Position numbers and translations under genes: made by a program
Notes under the pieces: generated by a model
Told to the model about the DNA's origin: nothing
Databases searched by the model: none
Seen by the model: only the letters and a program-made list of their open reading frames with translations
Assembly: GCA_963816185.1 (NCBI GenBank)
Contig: CAWFJJ010000001.1
Coordinates: forward strand, 448,001-512,000
Source: Thermoanaerobaculia bacterium
GTDB lineage: Bacteria > Acidobacteriota > Thermoanaerobaculia > UBA5066
Length of the DNA: 64,000 nucleotides
Direction: 5' to 3'
Shown here: piece by piece, positions 21,689-46,666 of the stretch
Position numbering within the stretch: position 1 is the stretch's first letter
How the letters are laid out: each line of letters begins with the position of its first letter

Positions 21689-23272
21689 ATGATCCTCCGT
21701 CGCACCTCTCTCGCGGTCCTTCTTCTTCTCGCGACCAGCGCTTCGGGCACCGGCCTCGAGCGTTACAAGGACTGGAGCAAGTCCCCCGAGTACACCTGCC
21801 TTGCGACCAAAGACGAGCAGAAGGCCTGGAAAAAGGTCACCTCCGACGAGGAAGCCGACCACTTCGTCCAGCTCTTCTGGGCCAAGCGCGATCCGGACCT
21901 CAAGACGCCTGTCAACGAGTTCAAGGTCGTCTTCGACCAACGCGTCAGGGAGGCGGATCAGCTCTTCGCGATGCCGCGCATCCGCGGCGCCCTCACCGAG
22001 CGCGGGAAGTTTTACATCCTTGTCGGAAAGCCGAAGACGCTGTCGAGGCAGGCTGGTATCAAGCTGCAACCGAACGCCACGTTGCAGTTGACCGCCGACG
22101 CGAACTCGGGAACGGCCCCCGGGCAGATTCCGCCCCCGAACGATCCGGGCACGTCGATTGGCGAGAGCATCGTGACGTTCACGTACGAGGCCGAGCAACT
22201 TCCCGACTGGGCGTCCTGGAAGTCGTTCACGGCGCAGTTCGTCGTCGAGGCGTCGCGCGATTACGTTGGCGGCAAGAACGGCGGCGACGTGAACTCTTTG
22301 GAGGTCAAGGCGCGCACCGCGGCGATCAAGAATCCCGACCTCAAGGCGCCGCCCCACTACCGGACCGCCGCCGAGGTCGAGGCCGAGCGGAAGGAGGCCG
22401 AAGCGACCGCCGCTGAAGCACTGAAGGGCCCGACGCTGTCGGCGCCGGTGCGGCAGGCCCTCGAAGAAACGCTGTCCAAGGAGGACACGGGGGCGCTGAC
22501 CCTCTTCCCGATCACCCTGAGGGAGGGAGAGATCCAACTCCAGGTGCAGCTCTTCGTGCCGGCTCCCGCCGGGGCGCCATCCGACGCAAAGCTCGCGATC
22601 CTCGTCAAGAACAAGGCCGGTGGCGACGCCGCGCGCCTCGAGGAGGTCACGGGGTTCGACCCGACCCGTGGGGGATACCTCTCCAGCCGCTCCTTCGCCG
22701 TGCCGCCCGGCGATTACAGCGTCGCGGCCGGCGTCTTCGACGCGGCGGGAAAGGTCATGGCATCGGCGAAGCGCTCGATCGCGATCACGGCCGCGGGCAA
22801 GGACTTCTCGCTGTCTCCGCTGGTCGTCGCGGCAACTTTCTATCCCGCCCCGAAGGGCACGGCCGAACAGGCCTTCACCTGGAACGGCAACTGTTTCGTC
22901 ACGAAGGGCGAACGACTGGATCCCGAGGATGGACTCTCGTTCGTCGTGCGCGTCTACAACCCGGCGGTGGATCCCGCCTCGAAGACGGTCCGCCTGTCCC
23001 GCATCGTGAAGATCAAGGCCAAGGGCGCCCCCGCGATGGACGTCCCCCAGCCGAAGGACGATCCGATTCCCGTCCCGGACTCGAAGGATCCGACGGGCAT
23101 TCTCACGGTCGACGTGGCCGCAGTGCTCATCGACAACAATCTTGGCCAATACCTGAGGAGGGCCGGCGAGTACGATTTGAAAGTCTCGGTCACGGACGAG
23201 GTGTCGAAGAAGACGGCGGACACGAGCACGACGTTCACCGTGACGGGCGTCCTGCCGCCCAAGAAGAAGTAA
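21689..23272 (+). CDS. secreted GWxTD-domain protein 1 with C-terminal beta-sandwich domains
   Basis: Signal peptide; FWAKRDPDLKTPVNEF...RVREADQLF...RGALTERGKFYILVGKP. Confidence 0.85.
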   Translation: MILRRTSLAVLLLLATSASGTGLERYKDWSKSPEYTCLATKDEQKAWKKVTSDEEADHFVQLFWAKRDPDLKTPVNEFKVVFDQRVREADQLFAMPRIRGALTERGKFYILVGKPKTLSRQAGIKLQPNATLQLTADANSGTAPGQIPPPNDPGTSIGESIVTFTYEAEQLPDWASWKSFTAQFVVEASRDYVGGKNGGDVNSLEVKARTAAIKNPDLKAPPHYRTAAEVEAERKEAEATAAEALKGPTLSAPVRQALEETLSKEDTGALTLFPITLREGEIQLQVQLFVPAPAGAPSDAKLAILVKNKAGGDAARLEEVTGFDPTRGGYLSSRSFAVPPGDYSVAAGVFDAAGKVMASAKRSIAITAAGKDFSLSPLVVAATFYPAPKGTAEQAFTWNGNCFVTKGERLDPEDGLSFVVRVYNPAVDPASKTVRLSRIVKIKAKGAPAMDVPQPKDDPIPVPDSKDPTGILTVDVAAVLIDNNLGQYLRRAGEYDLKVSVTDEVSKKTADTSTTFTVTGVLPPKKK

Positions 23273-23301
23273 GGGAGCACAGAGGTTCCCCGGGGATCAC
23301 C

Positions 23302-25473
23302 TCAGAATCGCGCGTCCTTCGGGAAGAGCCGGCGTCCCTCCTTCCGGAGCTGCTCTTCTCCCTTCGCGTCCTCGGTCGCGTGGAATGTACGCATGCCGAG
23401 GAGGAATGCCTCCGGCGTGGGCTGGCGCGTGACGAGCTGGATGACGACTCGGCGGGCGTCTTCGCGCCGGCCGACGGAAGCGTAGAGAGCGGACAGCGAG
23501 ACGCGCGCATCGAGGCGGTCGGGATAGAGCCGGATCTCTTCGAGGAACTCCTTCTCGGCCTGAACGGCGCGCCCCTGGCGCGCGAGGACGTCTCCCCGCA
23601 GCATGTGAAGACCCGACTGGACGAACGTGTCGTCGGCCGAGAGAGAAACCGCCGCGTCGGACCAGCGCTGCGCCTCGGCGAGATCGTTCTTCTGGACGGC
23701 GAGCCGTCCGAGGACGAGAGCGCCGCGAATCTTCACTTTCCCGGTGCCGCGATCGAAAGCGCTCCGCGCCGCGGCCTGCGCCGTCGCATAGTCTCCCCGG
23801 CCGAGCGCCGCCCGCGCCACGATGTCTTCGGCCCCGGGGTCGCCAAGCGCCCTGAGAGCGTCGCCGTGGCGCGCCGCCTCGTCCCACTTTCCGAGCTGCA
23901 GGCACAGGTTCGCGACCTCGGTCACGTACGGTCCGCGCGCCGCCTCCGGGGCGAGGTCGACCGTCTTCTTGAGAGCCGCGAGCGCCTCCTCGGGGTGCCC
24001 CAGCTCGAGGAGGACCTTCGAGTCCATGTCCCACACGTCGAGCATCCGCGGGTTCTCCTTGAGGAGCTTTTCGAAGATCTCGTGGGCCCGCGCCGCGTTC
24101 CCCGTCGAGAGGTCGCCGAGCCCCGTGCGAAGCTCCTCGAAGGTCTTGATACGGTCCTTCGGGTCGTCGAGCGATCCTCCGGTCGCGGAGGACGGGCCCG
24201 CGCTCAGATAGCCGAGCGACGCGAGCTGCTTGCGGGCCTCGGGATCGAGATCGCCCGCGGACTCGAAGGCGGGTCGCCTCTTTTCCATCTCGGCCTTCAT
24301 GGCGCGCAGCGCATCGGGCTTTTCGGCGAGTCGGTTCACCGTCTCGCCCCGGTCGGCCGTGACGTCGTAGATCTCCGGTTTCGGCGCGTCGATGTAATGC
24401 CACCGGCCGTCGAAGAGCGACGACAGCTCGCTCCAGCCAAAGTGAATTCGCGGAAAGAACGTCTCGGAGAGGATGCGCCGCGGCGGGCCGCCCTGCGCGG
24501 GGTCGAGGAGCGAGACCGTGCCCGGCGGCGGGGTGAACCCCTCGAGGCCCGCGGCCTCGCCGACGGTCGTGAAGACGTCGACGAGCGCGGCGGGCGCCGC
24601 GACGGAGGTTCCGGCCCTCCGGCCGCCCGGAAGCTTGACGAGAAGCGGAACCTGAAGCGTCTCGCGGTACAGGAACATCCCGTGCTCGGACTCGCCGTGG
24701 TCCCCGAGCCCTTCTCCGTGGTCGGAGAGAAAGATGACGAGCGAAGGGTCGTAGAGGCCGCGCTCCTTCAGGAAGGCGAGGAACCGTCCGACGATCGAGT
24801 CGGCGGTCGCGATCTCGCCGTCGTAGGGAAGGGACGCATATCGGCTCTTGAAGGGCTCCGGCGGCTCGTACGGCGTGTGCGGCTCGTAGAGATGGAGGAA
24901 CGCGAAGATCTTCCTTCCGGGAGGAATCGATTTCAGCCAGGCCTCGAGCCGGGCCTCGGTGTCCGCGCCCGCGCGCTGGACGCGTCCGAGCGCGACCTTG
25001 CCTTCCGCGGGCTCGACCGCGTCGTCGTAGAAGTCGAAGCCGCGGGAGATTCCGGAATCGCCCTTGAGGACGAAGCACGAGACGGCCCCGCCCGTCGCAT
25101 ATCCACCCTTCTTCAGGAGCTCGGCGAGCGTCGGGACGTCCTTCTTCAGGTGGTAGCCGAGGTTGTCGTGGATGCCGTGCGCGGCCGGCTCGCGCCCCGT
25201 GAAGATCGACGCGTGCGACGGGAGAGTCAGGGGGACGTGGGACCACGCGCTCTCGAAGAGAAGCGCATCCTTCCGGAATTCGGTGAGAGCCGGGGTCTCG
25301 ACGCCGTGATAGCCGTAGAACGGCAGGTGGTCCGACCGCAGCGTGTCGACGCTGATGAGGATCACGCCCGCGCCGGGAAAGGTCTCGGAAGGCGCTCTTC
25401 GGCGGCAGCCGGCGCACAGAAACGGGAGCGCTGCGGCGGCGGCGATCGCGATCGCGATGCGGAGACGGTTCAT
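23302..25473 (-). CDS. lipoprotein, sulfatase-like (alkaline-phosphatase superfamily) domain + TPR, copy 1
   Basis: Lipobox-like LCAGC; ISVDTLRSDH, PLTLPSHASIFTG, HLYEPHTPY, SDHGEGLGDHGE..HG, LASLGYL, then TPR helices. Confidence 0.9.
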   Translation of the reverse strand: MNRLRIAIAIAAAAALPFLCAGCRRRAPSETFPGAGVILISVDTLRSDHLPFYGYHGVETPALTEFRKDALLFESAWSHVPLTLPSHASIFTGREPAAHGIHDNLGYHLKKDVPTLAELLKKGGYATGGAVSCFVLKGDSGISRGFDFYDDAVEPAEGKVALGRVQRAGADTEARLEAWLKSIPPGRKIFAFLHLYEPHTPYEPPEPFKSRYASLPYDGEIATADSIVGRFLAFLKERGLYDPSLVIFLSDHGEGLGDHGESEHGMFLYRETLQVPLLVKLPGGRRAGTSVAAPAALVDVFTTVGEAAGLEGFTPPPGTVSLLDPAQGGPPRRILSETFFPRIHFGWSELSSLFDGRWHYIDAPKPEIYDVTADRGETVNRLAEKPDALRAMKAEMEKRRPAFESAGDLDPEARKQLASLGYLSAGPSSATGGSLDDPKDRIKTFEELRTGLGDLSTGNAARAHEIFEKLLKENPRMLDVWDMDSKVLLELGHPEEALAALKKTVDLAPEAARGPYVTEVANLCLQLGKWDEAARHGDALRALGDPGAEDIVARAALGRGDYATAQAAARSAFDRGTGKVKIRGALVLGRLAVQKNDLAEAQRWSDAAVSLSADDTFVQSGLHMLRGDVLARQGRAVQAEKEFLEEIRLYPDRLDARVSLSALYASVGRREDARRVVIQLVTRQPTPEAFLLGMRTFHATEDAKGEEQLRKEGRRLFPKDARF

Positions 25474-25498
25474 CCGGCGAGTATCTCCCAGCGTCTCG

Positions 25499-25528
25499 AA
25501 AAAAAGAGCCGGGCTTAAAGCCCGGCTC
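25499..25528 (-). terminator. intrinsic terminator after TBDR1
   Basis: Minus strand GAGCCGGGC-TTTAA-GCCCGGCTC then a T run. Confidence 0.85.
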
Positions 25529-25564
25529 CCGATCCGCCGCGAGGCGGAGAAAGAAGGCGAATCC

Positions 25565-28500
25565 CTAGAAGCGGAGGCCCATCGAGAGCGTGAACGTGCG
25601 GGGGAGCTGGTAATCCGCGTTGCTCCTCGCCTTGCCGAACGTTTGGGCCAGTGTCCCAATTCGCGGTCGTGACCGTCAAGTCGCCGTGCGGGCGCTGAAC
25701 GGGCGTCGTCGTGAATGGGTTGAAGGCCGCGAACGTGTTCGGGGCCTGCTTGCCGGTGGTTGGGTCCAGGAACGTGCCGGGGGAGACCGCCGTGTTGACC
25801 GACGTGTCCACGGCGACGAGGCCCCGCCGGTTGAAGACGTTCAGGACCTGCGGCTGGATGAAGATCTCCACGAGGCCGCCGATCTTGATCTGGTAGTTGA
25901 GCGAAAGGTCCGTGCGGCTGATGTTGTCCGTCCGGAAGGCGTCACGCGGCGTGTAGTAATAGTTGGATGTCGCCGGTCGCGTGGCGTAGCCCGGGTTCGT
26001 CACGAAGCTGGACGAGCGGACCGTTCCGAGAGCGCCGTACGGGGCCCCTGTGTCGTAGGACTGGATCAGACCGACCGAGACGTTGCCCATGCTCCGCGGG
26101 ATGAACCCGAGGTCGGCGAACCCCAGGACGCGGATCCGGTGGCGTTGATCCGTCTGCATCGAGCCGTACGGCGGCGTTCCACGAGGCCTGCTTGTACTCC
26201 GGATACGTGTCCAGGGTGTTCGTCAGCGGGCCGCTCGTCGAGTTCTCGCCGTCGAAATTTCCGAGCGTGTGTGACCACGTCCAGTTCGCGCCCAACGTGA
26301 GCCAGTTATACCGATACTGGAACTGCGTCTGGAGACCGGTGTAGTTGCGCTGGACGTCGTTCGTGTTGCCGATGACGCCGAGGTCGTAGGCCTTGCCCGT
26401 GACGTCGTGGACTTCCCCGGTCTGAGGTGTTGATGACGAGGTTGTAGAAATCGTGGAAGTCGCGACGGACGAAGTCCGCGCGGTACGCGAACGACGAGCC
26501 CTTGTTCAGGCCGAGCGAGCCGTTCACGCCGAACGTGTATTCCCGTGCGTACGGCGACTTGAGCGTCTGCGTGATCACGCGATTGAGGCCGGGAATGCTG
26601 GCGTAAGCGAGAGGCAGCGTGCAGGTCGACAGGTCCGGGCACCCCTGCGCGAAGAACCAGTTGAAGACCTGCTGGAGGGCCTGGGCGCGGGTTTCGAGGG
26701 CCGTCCCGGCGGGCGGGAGCTTGCAGCCCGTTCCGCTCGGAATGCAGTTGATCGGATCGGCGCCCGCCCCCGTGTAGTACCAGTAGAACGTCGCAGGCTG
26801 GCCGCCGCTCGAGGAGCTGTCCTGAATGGCGTCCTGGAGGCCGCCGACGTAGTGCGCGTAGCTCGCTCCCACCCGGACGTTCCCCTTGCCGGTCACGTCG
26901 AAGTTCGCCGCGAGGCGCGGGCTGAACGCGGAGTCGTTCGCGGTCTTGACGCCGTTGCTGTTCGTGGCGTCGTTCTTGTCGTATCGCACGCCGAGGTTGA
27001 GCGAGAGGCGGTCGTTGAGCCGCCAGGAGTCGTTTATGAACGCCGAATTCGTCAGCGTGTTCGTTCCGTTCGTGAGGTTGTAGATCGGCGTGTAGTAGAC
27101 GAAGGAGTTCGCTCCGATGACCGGGAAGATGTCGCCGCCCTGGACGATCACGTTCGTCGTGAACAGGCGGTAGTCGCTGCCGGACTGGTGGTTGTTCGCC
27201 GAGCGCTGGCCCGCGAAGTTGTCGTACCCGAGGACGATGCTGTGCGCGCCGAGGGCGCCGGTGGACAGGAAATACGTGCCCTTGACGAGGTAGTCGCGGT
27301 TGTCGCGTTTCTCGGGGCCGCAGACGCCGCAGAACGTGGGCGCGTTGTACCGGGGACTGCCGGACAGCGCCCGGTCGCGCATGAGCGTGCCCTTGATGAG
27401 GTCGGTGTACAGCGAGCCGGCGTTCTCGAACGTGAAGTGCCGGTTCGAGTAGAGGCCCTCCACGAAGAGCTCCGAGCTGAGGACGCCGTTGTAGTTCAGG
27501 GTGAGGGTGTCCTGCGGGAGCGTGCGGTTCACGAAGCTCGCCGCGTCGAGGACGTGCTGCGGGTCGGGGAAGACGTTGTTCGTCTGGGCTTCGTCGATCT
27601 TCAGGTACGCCCCCGAGAGCGTGTGGTTCGCGAAGGGCGTCAGCGTGAGCTTGCCCTGATAGCGCTTCTCGTCGTCGCCCTGCGAGAACGGGATGGCCGT
27701 GACCGCGGTGACTTGCCCGGTACTCGTGTTGGCTTTTCGGAAGGCGCCGAAGAACCAGACGCGGTCCTTCCAGATCGGCCCGCCGAGCGTCGCCTCGTAC
27801 CGCTCGAGGAGGTCCTGATTGCGCGTCTCGCCCGAAGGCGTGATCGCGGACCACGCATCGTTCGTGAACGAGGTGCGAAACGAGCCCGAGAACGCGTTGC
27901 CGCCGGTCTTCGTGACGGTGTTGATGACGCCGCCCTGGAAGCGGCCGTACTCGGCCGAGACGCTGTTCACCGAGGTCTGGGACTCCTGGATCGCGTCTTC
28001 GATGTAGAGGTTGAGCGGGTTCGCGCGGATGTTGTCCGTGATGACGGCGCCGTCCACGGTGTAGAGGTTGTCGAACGTCGGCGCGCCGGAGACCGTGACG
28101 GGGGGATTGGCCGCGTTTAAGCTCGTAACCGTGTTGAGACCCGAGGAGAGGGCCGCCTCCTGGGCGATCGTGCGGGCGAACGGGAGCTTGTTCGCGAGGT
28201 CGCTCGTGATCGTCGTGGAAGCCTGCGTCGTCGTGGAGACGATCTCGGCTTTCGCAGAGACGACCGCGGTCGCCGCGATCTCGTTCAGCGAGAGCGTCGC
28301 GTTCACGGTATTCCGCTGGCCGACCGAGAGCGGGAGCTCCTTCGTCACGGTCTTGAAGCCCTGCAGGGCGAACGTGACGGTGTAGTTGCCGGGCGGAATG
28401 CCGACGAAGGTGTAGTCGCCGTTCGCGGAGGTGACCGCCGTTCGCGTGCCCTGGAGAGACGGCGACGCGAGCGTCACGGTGACCCCGGGCAGGCCGGCGC

Positions 28501-28621
28501 CTTCGTTATCGACCTTTCCCGAGACGGCTGTGGTCGTGAGGCTTTGCCCGACGAGCGTCGTCGCGCCGACCGCGGCTGCGACGAACAGGACGAGGAACCC
28601 GAAGAATCGGAGCTTTCTCAT
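25565..28621 (-). CDS. Oar-like TonB-dependent receptor 1 (carboxypeptidase-regulatory-like N domain); three apparent +1 frameshifts
   Basis: GLPGVTVTLASPSLQG, SAEYGRFQGGVINTVTKTGGN, LNLGVRYDKN. Alignment with paralog 37258-40317 restores one protein via shifts near 26425, 26170 and 25650, ending ...LSMGLRF*. Confidence 0.88.
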
Positions 28622-28771
28622 GCGTTTTCCTTCCTCCCTTTGTTGACGGAATCGGAAGAATCGAGGTGGCTTCGACCCCGAGATTTGGCTTGCGATTGCA
28701 GACGCGCTACTCCGGCAGCACCCCAAAAAAGCCTGTCTGTACTTCTAAAGAGCCCGACTGTCGCGAACTCT

Positions 28772-28787
28772 AGCACTTGCCGTGCCG
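28772..28787 (-). promoter_or_regulatory. putative sigma54 (-24/-12) promoter for TBDR1
   Basis: Minus strand CGGCACGGCAAGTGCT = GG-N10-GC, about 150 bp upstream of the ATG. Confidence 0.55.
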
Positions 28788-30633: not shown

Positions 30634-30636
30634 AGC

Positions 30637-32790
30637 CTATCGAGGGGCCTCACGGTTCAACGCCTTGCTGCGGTTCCGGTATGCGACCGCCCGTTTCTTT
30701 TCGCCGAGTGAATCGAGGGTGCTCGCGGCCAGGAGGTAGCTTCTCGGCGAGGGATTCGCGCGGACCATTTCGTTCAGCTCTTTGTCGAGACCCGGCAGAT
30801 CTCTCTTCATGAAACGAATCACCGCCAGGCTCGCGTACGGCTCCGCATGCGCGGGAAATGCCGCGATCTCCTCCCGAAAGGCCGCTTCCGCGTCCTCCAG
30901 CCTATCCATGCGGGCCAGAGCATCGCCTCGAAGGAACTCGAGGTTATAGATCGCCCCGAGCCGCTTCTCCCGGGCGGCCTCCTGAGCCTGCCCGATGACC
31001 TGAAGCGCTTCGGCAGGCTTCCCTGCGCGCAACTTGACCTCGGCCAGGACCAGGATCGCGGAGGGCTGAGGATTGCGCGACGCCGCCGCGGCCCGCGCCT
31101 CTCTCTCGGCGGCAGCAAGGTCACCGCGCGCCAGCGCGATGCCCGCGAGGAGCTCGCGAGCCTTGGAGGGAACCGTGGCCAGCGAGGCCCTTGCGAGGCG
31201 CTCGGCCTCGTCGAAACGCCGTCGCCGGAGCTCCACAGACCCGAGCGCCAAGGAGATGTCGGGGAAGAACAAAGGCGAACGATCGAGAGCCTGACGGTAC
31301 GCGGCCGCGGCTTCCTCGTCGAGATCGGATTCCGCCAGGAGCTCGCCGAGCTTGACCCAGGCATCGAACATCTCCGGGTTCTCCCGCACGCTCGAGCGCA
31401 GCACTTCGATCGCCTGGGGGACCCGTCCTTGCATTTCGAGATGCCACGCCTCCTCCATCCGCCGCAGAGCCGGGAGATTGTCGGCGGGGTTCGGCAGGTC
31501 CGCGGTCTCGCCGCCGTCGCGCAGGGTTCCGAGGTATCCCAACGACGAAAGGCGTCGCCTGGTCTCCTCGTCTACAGACGCCGGTTTTGCGCTCCCTTTC
31601 GGGAAGCGGGACAATTCCCTCGCGAGACGAGAAACGGTGGCCGGATCACTCTTGGCCAGGTCGTGCTGCTCGCGAGGATCCACGACCATGTCGTACAGCT
31701 CGGGACGAGGCCCGTGAATGTAGTGGTACCTGGAGTCCAGGATGCTGCGAAGATCGCTCCACCCCAGCTGGAGACGCGGGAAGAGCGTCTCGCCGTAGAT
31801 CACGCGGCCTGCCGCTGCCGTCGCGCCGGCCGCGAAGAGCGACGTCCCGCTCACCTCCTTGGGCGTCGGAAGACCGAGCGCCGCCGTGACGGTCGGAAAG
31901 ATGTCCGAGAGCTGGACGGGAGCCGCCACGCGTGTCCCTGCCCCGGAGTTGGCTGGGAGCTTGACCAGGAGCGGCACCCGAATCGCCTCGCGATACAGGA
32001 AGATCGAGTGTTGCTGCTCGCCATGCTCTCCGAGGCCCTCGCCATGGTCGGAGGTCACGATCACGATGGCCCTGTCGTACACCCCGAGCTTCTTCAGGGT
32101 TTCGAGAAATCCCCCCACGATGGCGTCGGAGGTCGCCACCTCGCCGTCGTAGGTGGCCCCGTACCGGCTCCTGAAGGGCTCCGGTGGGTCGTAGGGGAGG
32201 TGCGGTTCGTAGATGTGGAACAGGAAGAAGAACGGCTTGGCGGTGTGCTCGCCAATCCAGGCCTGTGCGAACACCGCCGTCTTGTCACCCGACCGCTGGT
32301 AGTTGACCGACTGGACACCGGGGGTCGTGACGAACGAGTCCTCGTAGAAGTCGAAAAGAGCGCCCAGGCCGGTTTCGAAGCGCATCACATACGAGGAGAC
32401 GGCGGCCCCGGTCGCATAACCTCGCTGCTTGAGCAGCCGAGGAAGGCTTGCGTGGGCCTGGCCGTCGAAGACGAAACCGATGTTGTTCCTGACCCCGTGC
32501 TCAGGAGGGAGCATGCCGGTCAGCATCGTCGTGTGCGCGGGGAGCGTCATGGGGCAGGGCGAGTAGGTGTTCTCGAACAGCCAGGCGTCCTTCGCGAACC
32601 GGTCCAGAAAAGGCGTTTGGATCTTTGTATACCCATACAGCGGAAGGCGGTCGGCGCGCAGTGTGTCGATCGAGATCAGGATGACCGGCGCATCGGGAAA
32701 CGTGGGAAGGGCGCGGTCCCGCGAGCACGATCCCGAGAGGAGACCGAAAAGTGCCACCGCGGCGAGGCTCCCCCGGTTCACCCTCGTCAC
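30637..32790 (-). CDS. lipoprotein sulfatase-like + TPR, copy 2
   Basis: LSGSC lipobox-like; ISIDTLRADR, PMTLPAHTTMLTG, SDHGE, LSSLGYL, TPRs. Start GTG 32790 or 32781. Confidence 0.9.
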   Translation of the reverse strand: MTRVNRGSLAAVALFGLLSGSCSRDRALPTFPDAPVILISIDTLRADRLPLYGYTKIQTPFLDRFAKDAWLFENTYSPCPMTLPAHTTMLTGMLPPEHGVRNNIGFVFDGQAHASLPRLLKQRGYATGAAVSSYVMRFETGLGALFDFYEDSFVTTPGVQSVNYQRSGDKTAVFAQAWIGEHTAKPFFFLFHIYEPHLPYDPPEPFRSRYGATYDGEVATSDAIVGGFLETLKKLGVYDRAIVIVTSDHGEGLGEHGEQQHSIFLYREAIRVPLLVKLPANSGAGTRVAAPVQLSDIFPTVTAALGLPTPKEVSGTSLFAAGATAAAGRVIYGETLFPRLQLGWSDLRSILDSRYHYIHGPRPELYDMVVDPREQHDLAKSDPATVSRLARELSRFPKGSAKPASVDEETRRRLSSLGYLGTLRDGGETADLPNPADNLPALRRMEEAWHLEMQGRVPQAIEVLRSSVRENPEMFDAWVKLGELLAESDLDEEAAAAYRQALDRSPLFFPDISLALGSVELRRRRFDEAERLARASLATVPSKARELLAGIALARGDLAAAEREARAAAASRNPQPSAILVLAEVKLRAGKPAEALQVIGQAQEAAREKRLGAIYNLEFLRGDALARMDRLEDAEAAFREEIAAFPAHAEPYASLAVIRFMKRDLPGLDKELNEMVRANPSPRSYLLAASTLDSLGEKKRAVAYRNRSKALNREAPR

Positions 32791-34975: not shown

Positions 34976-37167
34976 CGCCCGTGCTCCGCCTGTTCGTGCG
35001 TGAAGCGCACGTCCTGGGGATAGAGCCGCCTTGCCTCCGCGAGGAGGGAGCGCGCACGCGAGGCGTTCCCGAAGCGATCGAGGCTCCGGACGGCCATGAG
35101 GTAGGCGAAGGGGCCCGGCACCGCGCGAATCATCGCGTCGATCCGCCGGGAGGCCTCGCTCATCTGCCCTCGCGAGGCCGAGATGATGGCGAGACCGGTG
35201 AACGCGTCGACGTCCTGCGGGAAGAACTCGAGCTCCTTTCGGTAATCCGCTTCCGCGAGATCGAGCTTGTCCTGGCGGCCGAAAATCTCGGCTCTCGCGA
35301 CGTGGAGGCCCGGAGGAGGGGTCGCGGCGCCGGCGATCTTCGAGGCCTCGTCGAGCTTCGCGAGAGCTTCCGAGAACTTTCCCTCGAGCATCGCGATACG
35401 GGCCAGGACCACGAGCGCCTCGGGGAACGCTCCCTTGCGGGAGAGGCATTTCTCGGCCCAGAGTTTCGCGCCCGGCAGATCGTTCTCCATGAGGTGGATC
35501 CGGGCGAGAACCTCCGCCGCCCGTGCGTCCCCCATCTCCCACGCCACTTCCGCGTGATGGCGGGCTTCATCGGTCCGGCCGGCCCTGAGCGCGAGGTTGG
35601 CGACGTCCACGATGTAGTTCGTGCGTCCCGGCGGAGAGAGCTGGGCCGTCTTCTTCAGGGCGGCGAGAGCTTCGTCCATCCGCCCCTGCCTCTCCAGCGC
35701 GGCGGAGAGGATCTCCCAGCCGTCGATCAGACGAGGATTCGTCTTGAGGAGGCCGAGCAGGATCGGGATGGCCTCCGCGTTCTTTCCCGCCTGGTGAAGC
35801 TCGACCGCTCGCTGCAATTCGACCATGCTGCCGATGGCTTCCTTGGGGTCGGGCAGGGGAGCCCCGGTCTCAGAGGCCGAGCCCGTGAGATAGCCGAGGG
35901 ACTGGAGCTTCTTCGCCAGTTCGGGGTCGATCGCCGACGGAGACGTGAGGGCGGTCCTTCGCCTCTGGGCCTCGGCGACCATCGAGCGGAGCTCGGGAGG
36001 CTTCCGGCCGGCCAAGTTCTCCTTCTCCGCCGGGTCCCGGGCGAGGTCGTAGAACTCGGGAGTGGGTGCCTCGATGTACTGATGGCGGATGGAGATGAGA
36101 GAGCGGAGCTCGCTCCATCCGAGCCGAATGCGCGGGCTGTAGTTCTCGGCGAAGATCCGCCTCTCGGGGGCGGTCCCCCCCGATGCAAGACCGATGAGGG
36201 AGGTCGTGCCGGGTCTTTCCGGAAAGCCCGGAACCGCCAGCGCCTCGCCGATCGTCGGGAAGACGTCGGAGATCTGAACCGGCGTCTCGACGCTCGTGCC
36301 CGCCAGGGCACCTCCGGGCAGCTTGATCAGGAGCGGGATCTGGATCGACTCGCGGTAGAGAAAGATGCCGTGCTGCATCTCGCCGTGGTCTCCGAGGCCT
36401 TCTCCGTGGTCGGAGAGGAAGAAGATCATCGCCCTGTCGTAGAGACCGATCCTCTTGAGCTCGGCGAGGAATCCCCCCACGATCGCGTCAGAGTACGCGA
36501 CCGCCCCGTCATAGGCGTCTGGGTAGCGTGACCGGTAGGGTTCCGGGGCCTCGTAAGGGGCGTGCGGCTCATAGACGTGGAGGAACGCGAAGAGGGGACG
36601 GGGAGCCTCGCGGCGGATCCAGTCGAGCAGGAGATCCGCGGTCTCCTGTCCCGGCCGCCGCACGAACTCCAGCATGCTGGTCCGGCGCTTCGACTCCACC
36701 CTCTCGTCCCAGAAGTCGAAGCCCTTCGCGATCCCGCTTTGTGAGTTCAGGACGATCGCCGAGATCGCCCCTCCGGTCGCATAGCCGGCCTTCTTCAGCA
36801 GCTCGGCCAGGGTGGGCGTGGCCGGATCGAGGCGGTAGCCCGCATTGTCGAGGACGCCGTGCTGACCCGGCTCGAGACCCGTGAAGAGAGAGACGTGGGA
36901 GGGAAGGGTGAGGGGGATGTGGGAGTAAGCCCTCTCGAAGAGGATGGCGTCTCTTCGGAGTCCATCGAGGGCCGGTGTCTCGATCTTGGCGTATCCGTAC
37001 ATCGGGAGGCGGTCCGAGCGGAGCGTGTCGACCGAGATCAGGATGACCGGGGCTCTCTCGAACCGCGGGCCGACGTGGGCACGCTGCGCCCGCCTGCACG
37101 ACGGGACTGCGAGAAGCAGAACGATCCCGCCGACGAGAGCCGCGAGACGGGCCGGAGCGATCCCCAT
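34972..37167 (-). CDS. lipoprotein sulfatase-like + TPR, copy 4
   Basis: LAVPSC; ISVDTLRSDR, PLTLPSHVSLFTG, SDHGE, LQSLGYL, TPRs. Confidence 0.9.
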   Translation of the reverse strand: MGIAPARLAALVGGIVLLLAVPSCRRAQRAHVGPRFERAPVILISVDTLRSDRLPMYGYAKIETPALDGLRRDAILFERAYSHIPLTLPSHVSLFTGLEPGQHGVLDNAGYRLDPATPTLAELLKKAGYATGGAISAIVLNSQSGIAKGFDFWDERVESKRRTSMLEFVRRPGQETADLLLDWIRREAPRPLFAFLHVYEPHAPYEAPEPYRSRYPDAYDGAVAYSDAIVGGFLAELKRIGLYDRAMIFFLSDHGEGLGDHGEMQHGIFLYRESIQIPLLIKLPGGALAGTSVETPVQISDVFPTIGEALAVPGFPERPGTTSLIGLASGGTAPERRIFAENYSPRIRLGWSELRSLISIRHQYIEAPTPEFYDLARDPAEKENLAGRKPPELRSMVAEAQRRRTALTSPSAIDPELAKKLQSLGYLTGSASETGAPLPDPKEAIGSMVELQRAVELHQAGKNAEAIPILLGLLKTNPRLIDGWEILSAALERQGRMDEALAALKKTAQLSPPGRTNYIVDVANLALRAGRTDEARHHAEVAWEMGDARAAEVLARIHLMENDLPGAKLWAEKCLSRKGAFPEALVVLARIAMLEGKFSEALAKLDEASKIAGAATPPPGLHVARAEIFGRQDKLDLAEADYRKELEFFPQDVDAFTGLAIISASRGQMSEASRRIDAMIRAVPGPFAYLMAVRSLDRFGNASRARSLLAEARRLYPQDVRFTHEQAEHGR

Positions 37168-37202
37168 GGCGCGCACGAGGATAACGTCAACCCCCGGTCG
37201 AC

Positions 37203-37235: not shown

Positions 37236-37257
37236 GAAGAAAATCCCGCGAAGAGGG

Positions 37258-40200
37258 CTAGAACCTTGCCCCGAAGGTGAGCAGGTACTGACGGGGAATC
37301 TGGAACGACGGGGCCGCGCTGGAGCCGGAAGTCGGCTGGCCGAACGACGCGCTTTCCTTCCAGTTTGCTCCCAGGGCCGCGCACTGGGCGGCCGAGTCGG
37401 CTGTCGGGCACTGAATTGGTTTGTCGGTGAAGGGGTTGAAGCGGACGAGACCGGCGGAATTGGGGGTGGTGGTTTTCCCGGTAGTGACCGACGTGTTGAT
37501 GCCGGTCGCGTTGTTGACGAACGTGATGGCGTGGCCGTTGAAGACGTTGAAGACCTGCGGCATGACGAAGACCTCGACCGGTCCGATCTTGCCGGCGAAG
37601 TTGATGGAGAGGTCGGTCCGATAGACCGTGGGGGTGCGGAAGGCGTCGCGCGACGTGAAGTAGTACGTCACGCTGTTCGGCGGGCTTATGTAGCAGTGGT
37701 TCTGGTCGATCCCCGGCGTGCTGCATCCCAGGTTCACGTACGGACTCGAGTCGATAGTGCCGGCCGCGCCGTAGGGCGTGCCGCTGTCGATTTGCTCGAG
37801 CAGCCCCGGGGTGATGGTGACCGGACCGAGCCTCCAGTCATAGGTCCCGTAGAGGCGAACGCGATGCCTCTGGTCCTGGGCGAGGTCGCCCTTCGGAGAA
37901 TTCCAGGACGCCTGGATGTACTCGGGGTAGTTGAGCAGCGCGGACGAAAGGGGGCCGCTGCCGGAGTTCTCGCCGACGAAGTTCCCGATCGTGTGCGACC
38001 ACGTCCAGTTGCCGCCGACTTGCAGCATCCCGAACCTGTAGGAGAGGGACGTGTTCAACGCGGTGTAATTGCGTTCGGGGTTGTTCGAGTTGACGAAGAC
38101 CCCCAGGTTGTACTGGTTCCCGAGGGCATCCGAGACGAAGCCGGTGTTCAGGTTGCGCTCGAGCGCGTAGAAGTCCTTGAACTCGCGCCGCACCGCGTCC
38201 ACTCGGTAGACGAAGTTGGCGCCGAGGGTGCCGCCGAACCCGAGCGAATACTCGTTCGCGTTGGGCGACTTCAGCGGGTTGATGATCTGCTGGTTCACGC
38301 CGGGAAGGTTGACGATGTCCGGCTGGACAAGGGTCGGGAACACGCCCGTCTGGGCCACGCCGATGCCGTTGAACATCGTCTGCAGGACCTGGGCCGTTCC
38401 GGTGCACGTGCCCCCCGGCTGGCCGCACGTTTCGTTGATGGGTGCACCCTGCCAGAAGTAGTAGTAGCTGGCGGGCGAGCCGTTCGAGCTGGCGCCGCTG
38501 CCCGCGATCGTCTCCTGGATCTGGCCGACGTAGCGGGCGTAGCTGCCCCTCACCTGGAACTTCCCGTCTCCGGCGACGTCATACGATACGGAGAGTCGGG
38601 GGCTGAACTGGCTGTCGTTCGCGACGAGGTGGCCGCTCGAGTCGGTCGCGTCGTTCTTGTCCCAGCGGACGCCGAGGTTGAAGGAGACGTGGTTGCCGAG
38701 CTTCCAGATGTCGTTGACGAAGACCGAATTGGTCTTGAGATTGCTCCCCAGGCTCACGTTGGGGATCGGGTAGTAGATGAAGTAGGAGTTGGAGTCGATG
38801 ACGGGGTAGAGGTTTTGCGGGCCCGTCGGGACTGGTGGCGGTGTGACCGCTGTGACCGACGTCGGGTAGAGCGTCCAGCTGCTCCCGGACTGGAAGTTGT
38901 TCGAGTTTCTGAGCTGGGCGAAATACTGGTAGCCGAAGGAGATGTTGTGCGTGCCCAGGCTCTCCGAGGAGAGGAAATAGGTTCCCTTCCCGGTGATGTC
39001 CTTGTTGTCCCGGGTCTCGGGGCTGCAGACACCGCAGAAAACCGGGGACCACATCTGGCCGTAGCCCTGGTCCAGGACCAGAAGCGACGTGCCCCCGATC
39101 AGCGAGGTATCCGTTCCGCCCGAGTTCACGAACGTGAACTTCTTCCTCGAATACTGCGCCTCGAGGAAGAGGCTGCTCGTGAGCACGCCGTTGTAGTTGG
39201 CGGAGAAGAGGTCGGACGGCGTCTGGCGGTTGTAGAGCTGGTTCGTGTCGAGGACCGGAAGCGGGGTGAAGTAGTAGTTGTCGGCGTGCGTCGTCGTCCA
39301 GATATAGGACGCCGTAAGGGTGTGGCTCTGGACCGGCGAGATCGTCAGCTTCCCTTCGTAGCGGTCGTTCAGGTTCGTCTGCGGGAACGAGATCGTGGGC
39401 GCGCCGGCTATCGAGGCCGTGGACCCCGACGTCTGCTGCTTGTTGTAGCGTGCGGCGCCGAAGAACCAAATCTTGTCCGGCCAGAATGGGCCCCCGAGGG
39501 TGCCTTCGTAAGTGGGCACCCAATGGTCGGCGTAGGTCGTGTGGATCGGGGTCTGGGCCTTGGTGTTGTCGTTGTTCTCCGTCATGCGGAAGGAGCCGCT
39601 GAAGGCGTTCCCACCCCGCTTCGTGACGGCGTTGATGACGCCACCGGTGAAATGGCCGTACTCCGCCGAGACGGCCGACGTCATCGTGGACGTCTCCTGG
39701 ATCGCGTCCTCGATGAAGAGGTTGGTCGGCGTTCCGCGGACGTTGTCCTGGACGTTGACGCCGTTGACGTTGAAGACGCTGTCGTACGACATGGCGCCGG
39801 CGATCGTCACGGCCCCGTTAGGCCCGTTCTGGTTGACACCAGGGGTCATGATGACGGACGAAAGCATGGTCCTGGCGACCGGAAGCTTGTCCAGGAGTTC
39901 CGAGGAATACGTCGTGGTCGCCTGCGGACTCTGGGAGACGGTCTCGCTCTGCGCGACGACGACCGCTGCGGCGGCCACGCCGGCCAGCGCCAGCTTGACG
40001 TTCACCGCGATCTCTTGGCCGGACGAAACCTTCGTGGTTCTCGTGACGGTCTGGAAGCCGGACAGGGCGACGGTGACGGTGTATTCGCCCGGCGGCACGT
40101 TGGGAATGATGTAGTCCCCGTTGACGTTCGTCACGGTGTTCCGGGAGCCCTGAAGAGTCGGGGCGGTGGCCGTGATCGACACGCCCGGCAGGCCTTGATC

Positions 40201-40317
40201 GGTGGTGTCGCTCACGTTGCCCTGGAGTGTTCCGGTCGGTATGCCCTGAGCCCACACATGGTTCGCCATGAGTAGCGGCAGTACCAGTAATACGAGCCAG
40301 ATCTTCTTGTTCTTCAT
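37258..40317 (-). CDS. Oar-like TonB-dependent receptor 2
   Basis: Signal peptide, GLPGVSITATAPTLQG, SAEYGHFTGGVINAVTKRGGN, FNLGVRWDKN, C-terminal Phe (TFGARF); 1019 aa. Confidence 0.92.
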   Translation of the reverse strand: MKNKKIWLVLLVLPLLMANHVWAQGIPTGTLQGNVSDTTDQGLPGVSITATAPTLQGSRNTVTNVNGDYIIPNVPPGEYTVTVALSGFQTVTRTTKVSSGQEIAVNVKLALAGVAAAAVVVAQSETVSQSPQATTTYSSELLDKLPVARTMLSSVIMTPGVNQNGPNGAVTIAGAMSYDSVFNVNGVNVQDNVRGTPTNLFIEDAIQETSTMTSAVSAEYGHFTGGVINAVTKRGGNAFSGSFRMTENNDNTKAQTPIHTTYADHWVPTYEGTLGGPFWPDKIWFFGAARYNKQQTSGSTASIAGAPTISFPQTNLNDRYEGKLTISPVQSHTLTASYIWTTTHADNYYFTPLPVLDTNQLYNRQTPSDLFSANYNGVLTSSLFLEAQYSRKKFTFVNSGGTDTSLIGGTSLLVLDQGYGQMWSPVFCGVCSPETRDNKDITGKGTYFLSSESLGTHNISFGYQYFAQLRNSNNFQSGSSWTLYPTSVTAVTPPPVPTGPQNLYPVIDSNSYFIYYPIPNVSLGSNLKTNSVFVNDIWKLGNHVSFNLGVRWDKNDATDSSGHLVANDSQFSPRLSVSYDVAGDGKFQVRGSYARYVGQIQETIAGSGASSNGSPASYYYFWQGAPINETCGQPGGTCTGTAQVLQTMFNGIGVAQTGVFPTLVQPDIVNLPGVNQQIINPLKSPNANEYSLGFGGTLGANFVYRVDAVRREFKDFYALERNLNTGFVSDALGNQYNLGVFVNSNNPERNYTALNTSLSYRFGMLQVGGNWTWSHTIGNFVGENSGSGPLSSALLNYPEYIQASWNSPKGDLAQDQRHRVRLYGTYDWRLGPVTITPGLLEQIDSGTPYGAAGTIDSSPYVNLGCSTPGIDQNHCYISPPNSVTYYFTSRDAFRTPTVYRTDLSINFAGKIGPVEVFVMPQVFNVFNGHAITFVNNATGINTSVTTGKTTTPNSAGLVRFNPFTDKPIQCPTADSAAQCAALGANWKESASFGQPTSGSSAAPSFQIPRQYLLTFGARF

Positions 40318-40743
40318 TCGTCTCCCCCCTTTGAATCGGAATTAGAGGATGTTCTCTGAGCTATGAACAATATGAACAATTCGAACGACGCTCCCAATGA
40401 GTCAAATGAGTCATCTTTCAAGCACTTCGAGTCGACGCTTTCGGCAAGAATTTGGACGGGATCCCAAGAAACCGGAGCCGCGACTTTCTCCGCGGCCGGC
40501 CCCCACGAGGGCCTTGCTCGCAAGTAACTGGCTATCAATTACTTCCATAGCTCTGGAGATTACCTCGCGTTCGTATCGAGCCACTGATGACCTGATTAAG
40601 AGAGAAGCGTGCCACGGCAGCCGAACCTGCGCGTTCGAAACTGAAAATGGAAACTTGACGGTTCAGGTACGCGCGTTCGTACCTGAGCGAAGATAGAGTT
40701 CTTCGGGCATTTCGGCGAGAAGCTTATACGGAACTTTGGATTT

Positions 40744-42384: not shown

Positions 42385-42420
42385 GCGTGACCTCTGATAA
42401 CGGGTAAAGGGGAATGTGGG

Positions 42421-43857
42421 TCAGAGCTGGAGAATTTCGCGCAGCATGGCCGCGTCCCGGGTGATGACGTCGCTCCGTTCGGGACGCGCCGTCAGGGCGA
42501 CGACCTGCTCGGTGAGCCGCGGGTCGTCGCTCGTCCACTCCTGCCCGATCTGCTCGGAGGGAGCGGCCTGCTTGGCGAGAAAGATCAACCGTTCGGCGGC
42601 AGGGCTCCTGGTCGTGACCTGCCCGCTCGAGCCGAGGACATCCTCGACGGTCTGGGGGAGATTCAACTTCCGGGCCAGGACGCGGCCCGCGGCCGCCCGG
42701 AAGCGCGACAGGGCGCCCGCGCGGATCGGACCGGGAGGAAAAGCCACGGAGATCAACAGCTTGAGAAGCTCGTAGCTGCCGAGAGGCTCGAGCAGCCCCA
42801 GCGTGTACGCGTCCTCCCGCTCGAAGCCCTGGTCCTCGGCGAGGTGCGAGCCGGCCACCGCGGTGGACAGCGCCGAGCGTCTCACCACGCGCTCCATCTT
42901 CTCGTCCGACGGCACCTTGGGAGATCCGGCGTCCGCGAGGAGACCCGTGAATCGCCGGATCGCCGGAGCGCCCACGACGCGGACCGCTTCCCGGGCCGTG
43001 CCGATCAGCTCCTTCGGATCCGTGCGAAGGGAGTTCGCGAGGTAGAGAAGGTCGATCGTCAGGAAAGGGTCGAGGGCGGCGATCTGCACGATGCGCTCGG
43101 GCCCGGCGTTCTCGTCGAGGGCCGTCTTCAGCATCGTCGCGGTGTCGTCGTAGATCGGGAAAAGGCGCGCGGGCTCGCGCAGGCGTTTGTGGACGCGGTG
43201 CGCGAAGGCCGTGAAGCCCTGGAACGCCTCGCGCAGGGCCGCGGGCGCCGGCGCCTCGCCGGGCAGGCTTTCGAGAATCGTCCAGAACAGCGCGGCGAGC
43301 GCGTCAGGCTTGAACTCCTTCTCCCAGCGGGCGCCGGTCTCGTCGGCGCCGGCGGCCGCTCCCAGGTTCACGCGGGAGTCGTCCACCGACTTGGCGCCGT
43401 GGAACGCGAGCACCTGCCCGCGGAGAGACAAGTGGATCCTGATGAGGTCCTCGATCTTGAAGAGCGGATCGAATTCGAACGAGGCGCCCGCCCAGTGGAA
43501 GAGGTCGAGAAGGATCTTCATCGCGAGGCCTTCGACGGCCTCCACGAGCTTGTCGCGGCCGAGCAGGCTGCGTTCGAGGATGAGTCGCGTGAGGTTCTTG
43601 CCGGTCGCGAAGCTTTCGGCGAGAAGCTCGTAAACCGACGCCTCGGACAGGACCTTGCGGCGCGTCAGGTAGACGCCGAGGCGCTCGTTCGGCAGGGAGG
43701 AGGACACGAAGACGATCGCGCCGCCCTTGAGGTCGATCGTGCGCAGGACCTCCCCGCGCCAGACCGTCACGCGGCCGGAGAGGGCGTTGATCTCCAGCCA
43801 CTGAAGAAGATCAGCGAGCGAAAAGGTGTCGAGGTTCCCGCTGAGCGTGCGTGCCAC
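42421..43857 (-). CDS. DUF4388 (PatA-N-like) + HDOD-like signalling protein
   Basis: LSGNLDTFSLADLLQWL, LFHWAGASFEF; DPFLTIDLLYLANS, AYTLGLLEPLG. Confidence 0.8.
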   Translation of the reverse strand: MARTLSGNLDTFSLADLLQWLEINALSGRVTVWRGEVLRTIDLKGGAIVFVSSSLPNERLGVYLTRRKVLSEASVYELLAESFATGKNLTRLILERSLLGRDKLVEAVEGLAMKILLDLFHWAGASFEFDPLFKIEDLIRIHLSLRGQVLAFHGAKSVDDSRVNLGAAAGADETGARWEKEFKPDALAALFWTILESLPGEAPAPAALREAFQGFTAFAHRVHKRLREPARLFPIYDDTATMLKTALDENAGPERIVQIAALDPFLTIDLLYLANSLRTDPKELIGTAREAVRVVGAPAIRRFTGLLADAGSPKVPSDEKMERVVRRSALSTAVAGSHLAEDQGFEREDAYTLGLLEPLGSYELLKLLISVAFPPGPIRAGALSRFRAAAGRVLARKLNLPQTVEDVLGSSGQVTTRSPAAERLIFLAKQAAPSEQIGQEWTSDDPRLTEQVVALTARPERSDVITRDAAMLREILQL

Positions 43858-43942
43858 TGCTCACGCGAGTTTGACACGAAGCCGCCCGGCTAGGAGCCTT
43901 TCTGGGCAACCCTCGCCGACCTACAGACGTTTCTCGACCGGT

Positions 43943-43980
43943 GAAGGGGGCACGGGGGAAACACGACCGTGTTTCCCCCG
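43943..43980 (+). repeat. REP-like hairpin repeat, copy 2
   Basis: GAAGGGGGCA-CGGGGGAAACAC-GACC-GTGTTTCCCCCG, a perfect 12-13 bp stem. Confidence 0.6.
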
Positions 43981-44046
43981 ACGCTCGCGGCTGCTGGCGC
44001 GCCTTCCCTCCCGTGCGTGCGAAGCACGCGGCGCGCCAGGCGGATC

Positions 44047-45054
44047 TCAGCTTCCCGAGCGCAGAAGGCGCGTGGCCTTCTGGAGCGCGAGGAGTTCGCG
44101 TGCGCCTTTCTGAAGGACCCCGGTCCCGTAGCCCTGCTTCGTGTAGAAGCGATACTCGAGATCGCGGAACGGCACCCCTTTCGGAATGTTGTCCGAGCGG
44201 TAATACCAGGTCTCGACCTCGCCTTCTTCGCCCGCGGAACGCAGGTTCGTCGGATTGAACCTCGTCATGATGTCGTCTGATCTCGAGAGGGCCCTCTTTC
44301 CGACGTACGACGGAGGCCCGAGGATGACCAGCACCCAGCCGCGATCGGAAAGGGAGCCGCGCACCGCCTCCGTCGAGAAATTCCGGTCCGCATACTGGAC
44401 GCGCCGGTAGAACTCGACCTCGTACTCGTTGTCGGGAGTCGCGGGGTCGGGATCGAGATGCTTCCAGAAGCGGAAGACCCATTCACGGCGCGCCGCGTCG
44501 TCCGGGAGCCCCGAGAACTCCCTCTTCTCCTCCTCCGTGAGGAGGTGCCGCACGGGCGTATTCGGCCAGTCGGTCGAACCCGAGTAAGACGGCACCGTCG
44601 TCTCGTCGGCGGGCATCGTCGTGAGGGCCGGAAGAGAGGACGTGGGAGGCGGCGTCGGAGGTGCGACGCGGGCAGCGGCGGCCCGCTGCGCGTCGAAGAA
44701 GGTGCAATAGCTCTTCGGGTAGAAGCCGGGGTCGATTCTGGCGGCAGGCTGGAACTCGAAGTAGCGGGCGAGCTCCCGGCGCGCCCGTTCCTCGTCCTTG
44801 AGCTCCCAGGCGACCGCCGCCGAATAAAAGTGATAGGCGGGGAGGATCCTCGGAAGGGCCGGCTCGCGCTCGGGGGCGACGGCGAGCTCGAGGAGATGGC
44901 GCAGCGCGAGATCCGCGTCCGCCCAGCGTTTCGCGTGGTAGGCGGCTTTCACCTCGACGAGCGTTTCCAAGACGGGATCTTCCGCTGCCAGGAGGGGCGC
45001 CGCGAGGACGGCCGAGAGCAGAAACGTGGGCGCGAGGCGAAGGCGCACTTTCAA
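44047..45054 (-). CDS. secreted GWxTD-domain protein 3 (N-terminal TPR-like helices)
   Basis: [62 protein letters not shown]. Start approximate. Confidence 0.85.
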
Positions 45055-45085
45055 ACCTCGTAGCGCGGAGACTAGCATCCTGGCC

Positions 45086-46666
<1,581 letters not shown>

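Follow-up and report, generated by a model that had tools for sequence, protein, structure and literature searches.

Acidobacteriota are among the most abundant bacteria of soils and sediments and encode very many TonB-dependent transporters (TBDTs), the cargo of which is unknown. Transporters of the Oar architecture, in which a CarboxypepD_reg extension precedes a plug and a barrel, make up 28% of TBDTs and are dominant in Bacteroidetes, where they serve as nutrient importers, according to PMC6434023. Formylglycine-dependent sulfatases are recognized by two signatures, as given in PMC5066984: PS00523, [CS]-x-P-[STA]-R, in which Cys51 and Arg55 are essential, and PS00149, G-[YV]-x-[ST]-x2-[IVAS]-G-K…[HL], which includes the sulfate-binding Lys and His; the same text states that a Thr is not convertible to formylglycine. 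Here we describe a gene cluster of a soil member of the Thermoanaerobaculia in which Oar-type transporters are followed by lipoproteins that join a sulfatase-like fold to a TPR tail. The cluster lies in a stretch of 64,000 nucleotides, referred to below as the window (G000:C1:448001-512000; the genome comprises 5.09 Mb in 30 contigs). T denotes an Oar-type TonB-dependent receptor, S a sulfatase-fold-TPR lipoprotein, and GW a GWxTD protein; G, C, and L numbers are our handles for genomes, contigs, and loci. The succession of a T gene and one to three S genes is a genuine operon that occurs across the class.

The coupling was measured against a baseline of five whole genomes from four families, which hold 67 T and 31 S matches. 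An S gene lies within 3 kb of a T gene in 15 of 31 cases, against 0.8 expected, and within 7 kb in 18 of 31, against 1.5 expected. A sequence-only reading of this DNA had proposed that enzyme-TPR, receptor, GWxTD, and VWA genes form one envelope system. The neighborhood check shows a non-random arrangement for T and S, so the link between enzyme and receptor stands, whereas a system of all the genes together is not supported in the form proposed, GW genes being rarely found near S in the class sample.

A scan of one genome per species yielded at least 619 confirmed S relatives. The best 75 loci, all from Acidobacteriota, were mapped for T, S, GW, VWA, and DUF4388-HDOD genes with hidden Markov models (HMMs) built from the window proteins. 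These loci contain 103 runs of S genes, 19 of which end at a contig edge, leaving 84 that are decidable. Fifty of the 84 start after T, either directly (42) or with a small CarboxypepD_reg/TPR gene in between (8); four more follow a small CarboxypepD_reg-TPR protein alone, and two follow VWA. S is found in 39 of 41 genomes of the class (E <=1e-60; G000 and G004 included), at 1-13 copies per genome. The window's own genome has five full S genes, every one of them in a T-S operon; the window holds four, and the fifth, at C9:5212-7383, comes directly after an Oar-type T at C9:2039-5194. It also holds one distant S copy consisting of the catalytic domain only, and about a dozen tblastn matches to T-like genes.

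Genes of the window were called from a listing of open reading frames (ORFs) together with Pfam and NCBIfam scans. The cluster runs GW1(+) S1(-) T1(-) GW2(+) S2,S3,S4(-) T2(-) VWA(-) DUF4388-HDOD(-) GW3(-), and its features are as follows.

21689..23272, + strand: GW1, exported GWxTD protein of 527 aa (TIGR04514 66 bits, cut-off 28)
23302..25473, - strand: S1, lipoprotein with Thr-nucleophile domain, LGYL linker, and TPR tail (PF00884 E 3e-39, PF01663 E 2e-14)
25565..28621, - strand: T1, Oar-type TonB-dependent receptor with CarboxypepD_reg and OMP_b-brl_4/TonB barrel
28773..28787, - strand: sigma-54-like -24/-12 element, CGGCACGGCAAGTGC, then T at 28772
29022..~30633, + strand: GW2, paralog of GW1 (TIGR04514 39.2 bits on the N-terminal part, cut-off 28)
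30637..32790, - strand: S2, enzyme-TPR lipoprotein (PF00884 E 1e-44)
32787..34966, - strand: S3, enzyme-TPR lipoprotein, frame-split between catalytic and TPR parts
34972..37176, - strand: S4, enzyme-TPR lipoprotein of 734 aa (PF00884 E 3e-44), the copy used for modelling
37258..40317, - strand: T2, Oar-type TonB-dependent receptor of 1019 aa with CarboxypepD_reg, Plug, and barrel
40318..40743, - strand: T2 leader region, conserved in L008 and L011
40744..42384, - strand: VWA, exported protein with acidobacterial VWFA-related domain (TIGR03436 150 bits, cut-off 81.25)
42421..43857, - strand: DUF4388-HDOD protein (PF14332 E 4e-17, PF08668 E 2.5e-11)
44047..45105, - strand: GW3, short exported GWxTD protein of 352 aa (TIGR04514 75.8 bits)

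Each gene named in the sequence-only reading is thus present by ORF, Pfam, and NCBIfam evidence, in the order and orientation it gave; its end of the cluster, 45054, has to be moved to 45105. Its assignment of signal or lipoprotein peptides to every product except DUF4388-HDOD holds insofar as lipobox Cys residues and signal peptides can be read by eye, and on the same reading DUF4388-HDOD has no signal. Among the scanned ORFs of the region there is no SusD, glycoside hydrolase, formylglycine-generating enzyme, or inner-membrane transporter family, as had been stated, and with neither SusD nor a glycoside hydrolase the locus is not a classical polysaccharide utilization locus (PUL).

Within the two T-S units the genes are tightly packed, with intergenic gaps of 81, 5, and -4 nt from T2 through S4 and S3 to S2, and of 91 nt between T1 and S1. 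GW1 and S1 converge across a 29-nt gap, GW2 and S2 across a 3-nt gap, and T1 and GW2 diverge with 400 nt between them. The domain matches of T2 (PF13620 E 3e-16, PF25183 E 1e-19, PF00593 E 4e-7) and a weak match to Plug (E 4e-4, below the gathering score) give it the CarboxypepD_reg extension, plug, and barrel of an Oar-type receptor, the plug being sub-threshold. The small CarboxypepD_reg-TPR gene that occurs in related loci is absent from the window. The cluster is preceded by an AHSA1-like gene and an arginyl-tRNA synthetase gene and followed by a methylmalonyl-CoA mutase gene, and the remainder of the window encodes housekeeping functions (nuo, atp, and others). A few kb past the cluster are a thymidine kinase gene (46997-47656, -) and a gene for a 5'-nucleotidase-type protein (Metallophos + 5_nucleotid_C; 48508-50232, +), neither with an evident link to it.

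Related loci show how the units behave. S2, S3, and S4 are each matched by a separate orthologue in L008, L009, and L011, with the gene order preserved, so the triple is old and maintained; orthologues of S1 are found in L030, L037, L035, L031, and L045. In G014 the order is S-T, GW, S-T, GW, VWA, HDOD, GW3, with the T2-Sx3 block missing, and L030 has the same arrangement. In G009, GW1 is followed directly by GW2 and then by S2 and S3, and S1-T1 is missing. Within the genus, then, the GWxTD genes are otherwise fixed, and whole T-S cassettes are either found between them or missing; the repeated module described in the sequence-only reading therefore amounts to two independent T-S cassettes set between GWxTD genes.

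Three genes of the cluster are broken in the assembly. Based on a plot of GC content at third codon positions by frame and on the pieces matched by HMMs, T1 is split by three one-base shifts, GW2 by three, and S3 by one. Those in T1 lie near 26428, 26175, and ~25600-25650, its true C-terminus (...GLRF) being in yet another frame, and its HMM pieces together span model positions 1-977 of 1000. The GW2 shifts are at ~29357, ~29450, and 30600; the pieces are 43-59% identical to GW1, the C-terminal part 43%. The S3 shift, near 33653 inside a run of C, separates the catalytic from the TPR part, and S3 orthologues are intact in L008, L009, and L011. Short-read contigs from four DNA runs of one study differ from the window by one-base indels at 26175, 26428, 29357, 30600, 32781, and 33653, two of these contigs being otherwise letter-identical to it, and the corresponding orthologues are full length in L008, L009, L011, L030, and L104. 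Because near-identical short-read contigs are free of these shifts, the breaks in T1, GW2, and S3 are most likely errors of the assembly consensus. Real pseudogenization is unlikely given the indels in those contigs; strain-specific decay keeps some chance, since the contigs derive from other samples.

All S copies match both PF00884 (E 3e-39 to 1e-44) and PF01663 (52-58 bits, cut-off 23), the score for PF00884 being far the higher. The nucleophile is a Thr in the motif P-L-T-L-P-S-H, which is invariant in 40 of 40 aligned homologues and justifies the earlier label "Thr-type." The residues D50, T51, T90, H94, N111, T134, H200, H205, D256, H257, H264, E266, and H269 are likewise invariant in all 40. 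In S, an invariant Thr thus occupies the Cys/Ser position of sulfatases and a His the position of their Arg, and the metal ligands are rich in His. As S reads T-L-P-S-H at the place of PS00523, and S4 reads G-Y-A-T-G-G-A-I-S at that of PS00149, with the G-K...H sulfate site missing, both sulfatase signatures fail; judged by these residues, S is not a sulfatase, despite its PF00884 fold. Within the alkaline-phosphatase superfamily, Thr and Ser nucleophiles go with phosphoryl or phosphonyl transfer. The Thr nucleophile and the missing signatures point to phosphoester chemistry, and it is reasonable to regard S as a putative phosphoesterase and, less likely, a phosphotransferase. The phosphodiester-type activity suggested in the sequence-only reading is a reasonable expectation on the same grounds. 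At least 90% of the 40 aligned S sequences keep the lipobox Cys27, and a lipobox-like xxxC is present at 85 of 116 S N-termini.

The AlphaFold2 model of S4 (pLDDT 90.4, pTM 0.85) consists of a catalytic domain (residues ~40-415), a low-confidence linker (411-443), and fourteen TPR helices (444-732), the TPR tail of S comprising seven repeats. In Foldseek searches, the nearest matches to the catalytic domain are the phosphonate monoester hydrolase (PMH) 4uph and S1 sulfatases (E 5e-20 to 1e-17); TM(target) values of 0.56-0.72 against S1 sulfatases place it in the sulfatase fold. Sequence searches likewise find PMH and S1 sulfatases nearest.

The linker, although a low-pLDDT stretch in the S4 model, carries the invariant KKLxSLGYL…LPDP motif of S. 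The pattern L-[GA]-Y-[LIVM] is present in 130 of 134 S proteins, and in 0 of 72 T, 1 of 44 GW, 0 of 25 VWA, and 1 of 18 small TPR proteins. The tail is shared by a second type of enzyme: at L084:10338-13597 (G035), an operon encodes a T, a GWxTD protein, a 408-aa protein with a weak match to thioredoxin-like lipoproteins, and a lipoprotein in which a PF01663 domain, not PF00884, is joined to an …LALGYL… linker and a TPR tail. Since this tail is combined with two different domains of the alkaline-phosphatase superfamily, in genes that hold equivalent places in their operons, the LGYL-TPR tail may be the part that links the enzyme to the transporter system.

Upstream of T1, in the 400-nt region that it shares with the divergent GW2, CGGCACGGCAAGTGCT lies about 150 nt before the gene and scores 10 of 12 as a sigma-54 element. 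We scored GG-N10-GC sites with TGGCAC/TTGCW-like flanks in 430-nt stretches preceding 62 T genes, with the antisense strand as the control. Of these 62 stretches, 28 score at least 9 and 15 score at least 10; the corresponding numbers for the antisense control are 2 and none. The gene rpoN is present in G000. A loose sigma-54 pattern occurs across the window at chance frequency (31 against 32.6). The ~280-nt leader of T2 is conserved almost base for base at L008:3350-3800 and L011:6480-6930. It matches no Rfam family (best E 0.52) and has an ordinary folding energy (z-score -0.42), on which grounds an RNA element in this leader was rejected.

The GWxTD and VWFA proteins form the second part of the cluster. 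GW1 is modelled by AlphaFold2 (pLDDT 86.4) as an N-terminal alpha/beta domain followed by two Ig/FnIII-like beta-sandwiches, and in fold searches its C-terminal sandwiches fill all results, with beta-sandwich matches at Z 8-9. The VWA protein of the window matches Pfam VWA_2 only at E 0.0015. By TIGR04514, the NCBIfam model of the GWxTD domain (PF20094 in Pfam), G000 has four GWxTD genes, three of them in the window; the fourth encodes a 1055-aa fusion (G000:C1 ~555.5-558.7 kb; L007:7548-10712) with the GWxTD domain at residues 255-355 and an acidobacterial VWFA domain at 795-1054, by which the two families are linked. Elsewhere in the class, many of the GWxTD matches fall within open frames of 850-1490 aa, which may encode this fusion as well.

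GWxTD proteins occur in 41 of 41 genomes of the class (G000 and G004 included). An S gene lies within 10 kb of 10 of the 150 GWxTD matches listed (of 185); nine of these are in the window's genus and one is in G017, at a distance of 7 kb, the sole exception outside that genus among the matches listed. GW is also near S in three related loci of unplaced genus. Of 20 loci fetched from other families for a survey of GWxTD neighbors, 19 gave ORFs, and in 10 of these the commonest neighbor, ribBA, adjoins a GWxTD protein of ~500 aa (L083, L085-L088, L094, L095, L097, L101, L102). In two (L088, L101) GWxTD comes directly after bamA. An Oar-type T is directly beside GWxTD in L084, L090, and L098, and nearby or fragmentary in L092 and L093. 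In G000, the ORF between bamA and ribBA (C24:175848-177236) gave no match to the GW HMM at E <=10. Tblastn matches to bamA and ribBA occur there in the same order on both C14:6177-10053 and C24:174503-178382, which could reflect a duplication, a strain variant, or contamination of the bin (stated 3.4%).

DUF4388-HDOD recurs only with VWA/GW3, in the window and, at the corresponding position, in L030, L098, and L104. In L098, from another family of the order, HDOD-VWA faces GW-T-GW beside the same mutase gene, and no S is present. As no signal peptide is seen by eye, DUF4388-HDOD is presumably a cytoplasmic signalling protein. We read GWxTD and VWFA, with or without HDOD, as a second and looser gene set found near T genes in the order and not obligate for T-S.

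We tentatively favor, at a little below an even chance, the view that T-S is a TonB-powered uptake module whose lipoprotein partners cleave phosphoesters. S would be anchored at the outer membrane, and its LGYL/TPR part would seat it on or next to the transporter or hold a polymeric substrate. The enzyme would cleave phosphodiester- or phosphomonoester-linked groups off an organic substrate, T would import the product using TonB energy, and divergence among the tandem S paralogs would broaden the range of substrates. Such a module would do the work of a PUL or a SusCD-type harvesting unit, except that its partner lipoprotein bears an enzyme and is not SusD; GWxTD and VWFA may be accessory binders beside T genes. 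The data show the coupling of the genes, the composition of the active site, the fold, and the lipobox, whereas substrate class, transport direction, and physical contact are what we infer here. The uptake reading draws on the operon order, the presence of up to three diverged enzymes per transporter, the 1-13 S copies per genome, and the gain and loss of cassettes; these four traits are typical of nutrient-harvesting loci, which makes uptake the best supported reading. A more specific form of it, which we regard as doubtful, is that the TPR/LGYL part is a lid that docks on the barrel, while the phosphoesterase, with its Thr nucleophile, cuts back organophosphate polymers (nucleic acids, teichoic-acid-like or phosphoglycan material) where they enter, GWxTD and VWFA being accessory. 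If uptake is correct, a transporter hard-wired to one to three diverged phosphoester-cleaving lipoproteins would point to the harvest of organic phosphorus or phospho-polymers by Acidobacteriota, and a whole class of "sulfatase" annotations would be corrected. The GWxTD and acidobacterial VWFA families would gain a first testable context, as neighbors of T and as partners fused to each other.

Several observations weigh against uptake coupled to phosphoester cleavage. In the related loci, 28 of 84 S runs begin after something other than T, a small TPR protein, or VWA. In the one Oar-type TBDT that has been studied, the cargo is a protein and the direction is export, not nutrient import, according to PMC6434023. 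No characterized precedent was found in the literature for a Thr variant on the PMH/sulfatase scaffold, because the nearest solved folds, sulfatases and PMH, use formylglycine. When the ORFs of the best 75 loci were clustered and 30 representatives scanned, genes other than T, S, VWA, small TPR, and GW were housekeeping only, none in more than 9 of 75 loci, and there were no recurrent pst/pho genes, glycoside hydrolases, permeases, or sugar/peptide uptake genes near the module. T2 and its orthologues have a perfect conserved TGGCAC (40614-40609) with a poor -12 element. Finally, in one clade (L028, L033, L041, L044, L047, L053, L054, L059) a single S lies ~5 kb downstream of a pair formed by a small CarboxypepD_reg-TPR protein and a VWFA protein. 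The stored flanks of this clade give no T match, so that the same parts appear in other wiring; an FHA/Trans_reg_C regulator is found in L041, and its ORF cluster spans nine loci.

Three other explanations were weighed against uptake. T could instead export the S proteins encoded downstream of it, and perhaps GWxTD and VWA as well, across the outer membrane in the manner of Myxococcus Oar, the cassette then being a transporter with its cargo. T does share the Oar architecture including the CarboxypepD_reg N-terminal extension, and cargo genes beside a transporter would explain the T-then-S order as well as LGYL as a linear recognition signal in a flexible linker. However, export cannot be predicted from an architecture that is common to 28% of TBDTs and dominant in Bacteroidetes, where it serves import; the number of diverged enzymes per transporter, up to three, and of S copies per genome, 1-13, looks like substrate diversification; and 28 of 84 S runs have no adjacent T, so we consider export improbable. 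We give equally little credence to a role in envelope remodelling, in which S would act on components of the outer membrane or exopolymers of its own cell, adding or removing phospho-substituents, with GWxTD and VWFA as assembly factors. PF00884 relatives such as EptA, LtaS, and OpgB do modify components of their own envelope with phospho-substituents. The SDHGEGLGDHGE...H metal motif of S weakly matches phosphoethanolamine-transferase models (E 1e-5 to 1e-9), and the position of GWxTD directly after bamA in two other families would fit an assembly role. These matches are far below the cut-offs, S scoring 20-36 bits against 404-1250 for phosphoethanolamine-transferase and LtaS-type membership. 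The S N-terminus consists of a signal peptide and lipobox only, with no multi-pass membrane domain, its fold is nearest to soluble sulfatases and PMH and not to EptA or LtaS, and housekeeping functions of the envelope do not resemble a module with TonB coupling, variable copy number, and cassettes that are gained and lost inside a single genus.

The third explanation leaves the T-S unit intact and concerns its surroundings: the wider "system" could be an accident of neighborhood, with GWxTD, VWA, and HDOD having no functional tie to T-S. The confinement of GW-S proximity, among the matches listed, to the window's genus and G017 suggests this, as do the preference of GW for ribBA in other families and the loci in which one set occurs without the other, namely G009 with GW1-GW2 and no S1-T1, and G014 and L030 with GW2-VWA and no T2-Sx3. 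Against it stand three different GW-S arrangements across related loci: convergent in L021, L030, L031, L037, L042, L045, and L046, and with both genes on one strand in two others, GW coming first in L025 and S first in L019. Proximity of GW to Oar-type T, seen in 5 of the 19 loci from other families, also argues against chance, as does the finding that 3 of 23 GWxTD genes among the matches listed from five genomes have a T within 3 kb, where chance would give roughly 2-3%. On balance we hold a mere accident to be unlikely, though a serious contender, for the wider gene set; for the T-S cassette itself, TonB-powered uptake remains the reading that we prefer.

Literature searches for Acidobacteria with a TonB and carboxypeptidase regulatory-like pairing, and for a sulfatase-like hydrolase and TonB pairing, found no paper on the module; the accessible parts of PMC10564751 and PMC11495043 do not mention it, and no mention of GWxTD was found. 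Atlas clusters of S-like and of GW-like proteins have either no name or an automatic one, and Acidobacteriota are where they occur most often. What is new here is the version of Thermoanaerobaculia, T-S as a stable unit, the LGYL-TPR tail on two enzyme types, the GWxTD-VWFA fusion, and the polymorphism of cassettes within a genus.

Compared with PMH and S1 sulfatases (4uph, 2vqr, and choline sulfatase 6g5z), which are its best matches in fold and sequence, S has the sulfatase C-terminal subdomain, and its Asn111 and Tyr132 align with the Asn and Tyr of 4uph. Unlike these enzymes, S uses Thr in place of formylglycine derived from Cys or Ser and His in place of Arg, does not have the G-K-x-H sulfate site, is lipidated, and carries the LGYL-TPR tail. 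With Myxococcus xanthus Oar, T has the succession of CarboxypepD_reg, plug, and barrel in common (PMC6434023). The secretion role of an Oar-type protein, for PopC, is known only from experiments in M. xanthus, according to the same source; its popC is not a lipoprotein of the alkaline-phosphatase superfamily. The SusC/SusD loci of Bacteroidota, which serve polysaccharide and phosphate acquisition, resemble the module in having a TBDT with CarboxypepD_reg followed by a TPR-like helical lipoprotein, hydrolases at the same locus, and multi-copy, modular units. They differ in that no ORF of our region matches the SusD family or a SusC-specific NCBIfam model, in that the helical partner is here fused to an enzyme of the alkaline-phosphatase superfamily, and in that glycoside hydrolases and sensor/regulator genes are absent. 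Should the lid reading prove true, the T-S module would be the acidobacterial counterpart of the SusCD "pedal-bin."

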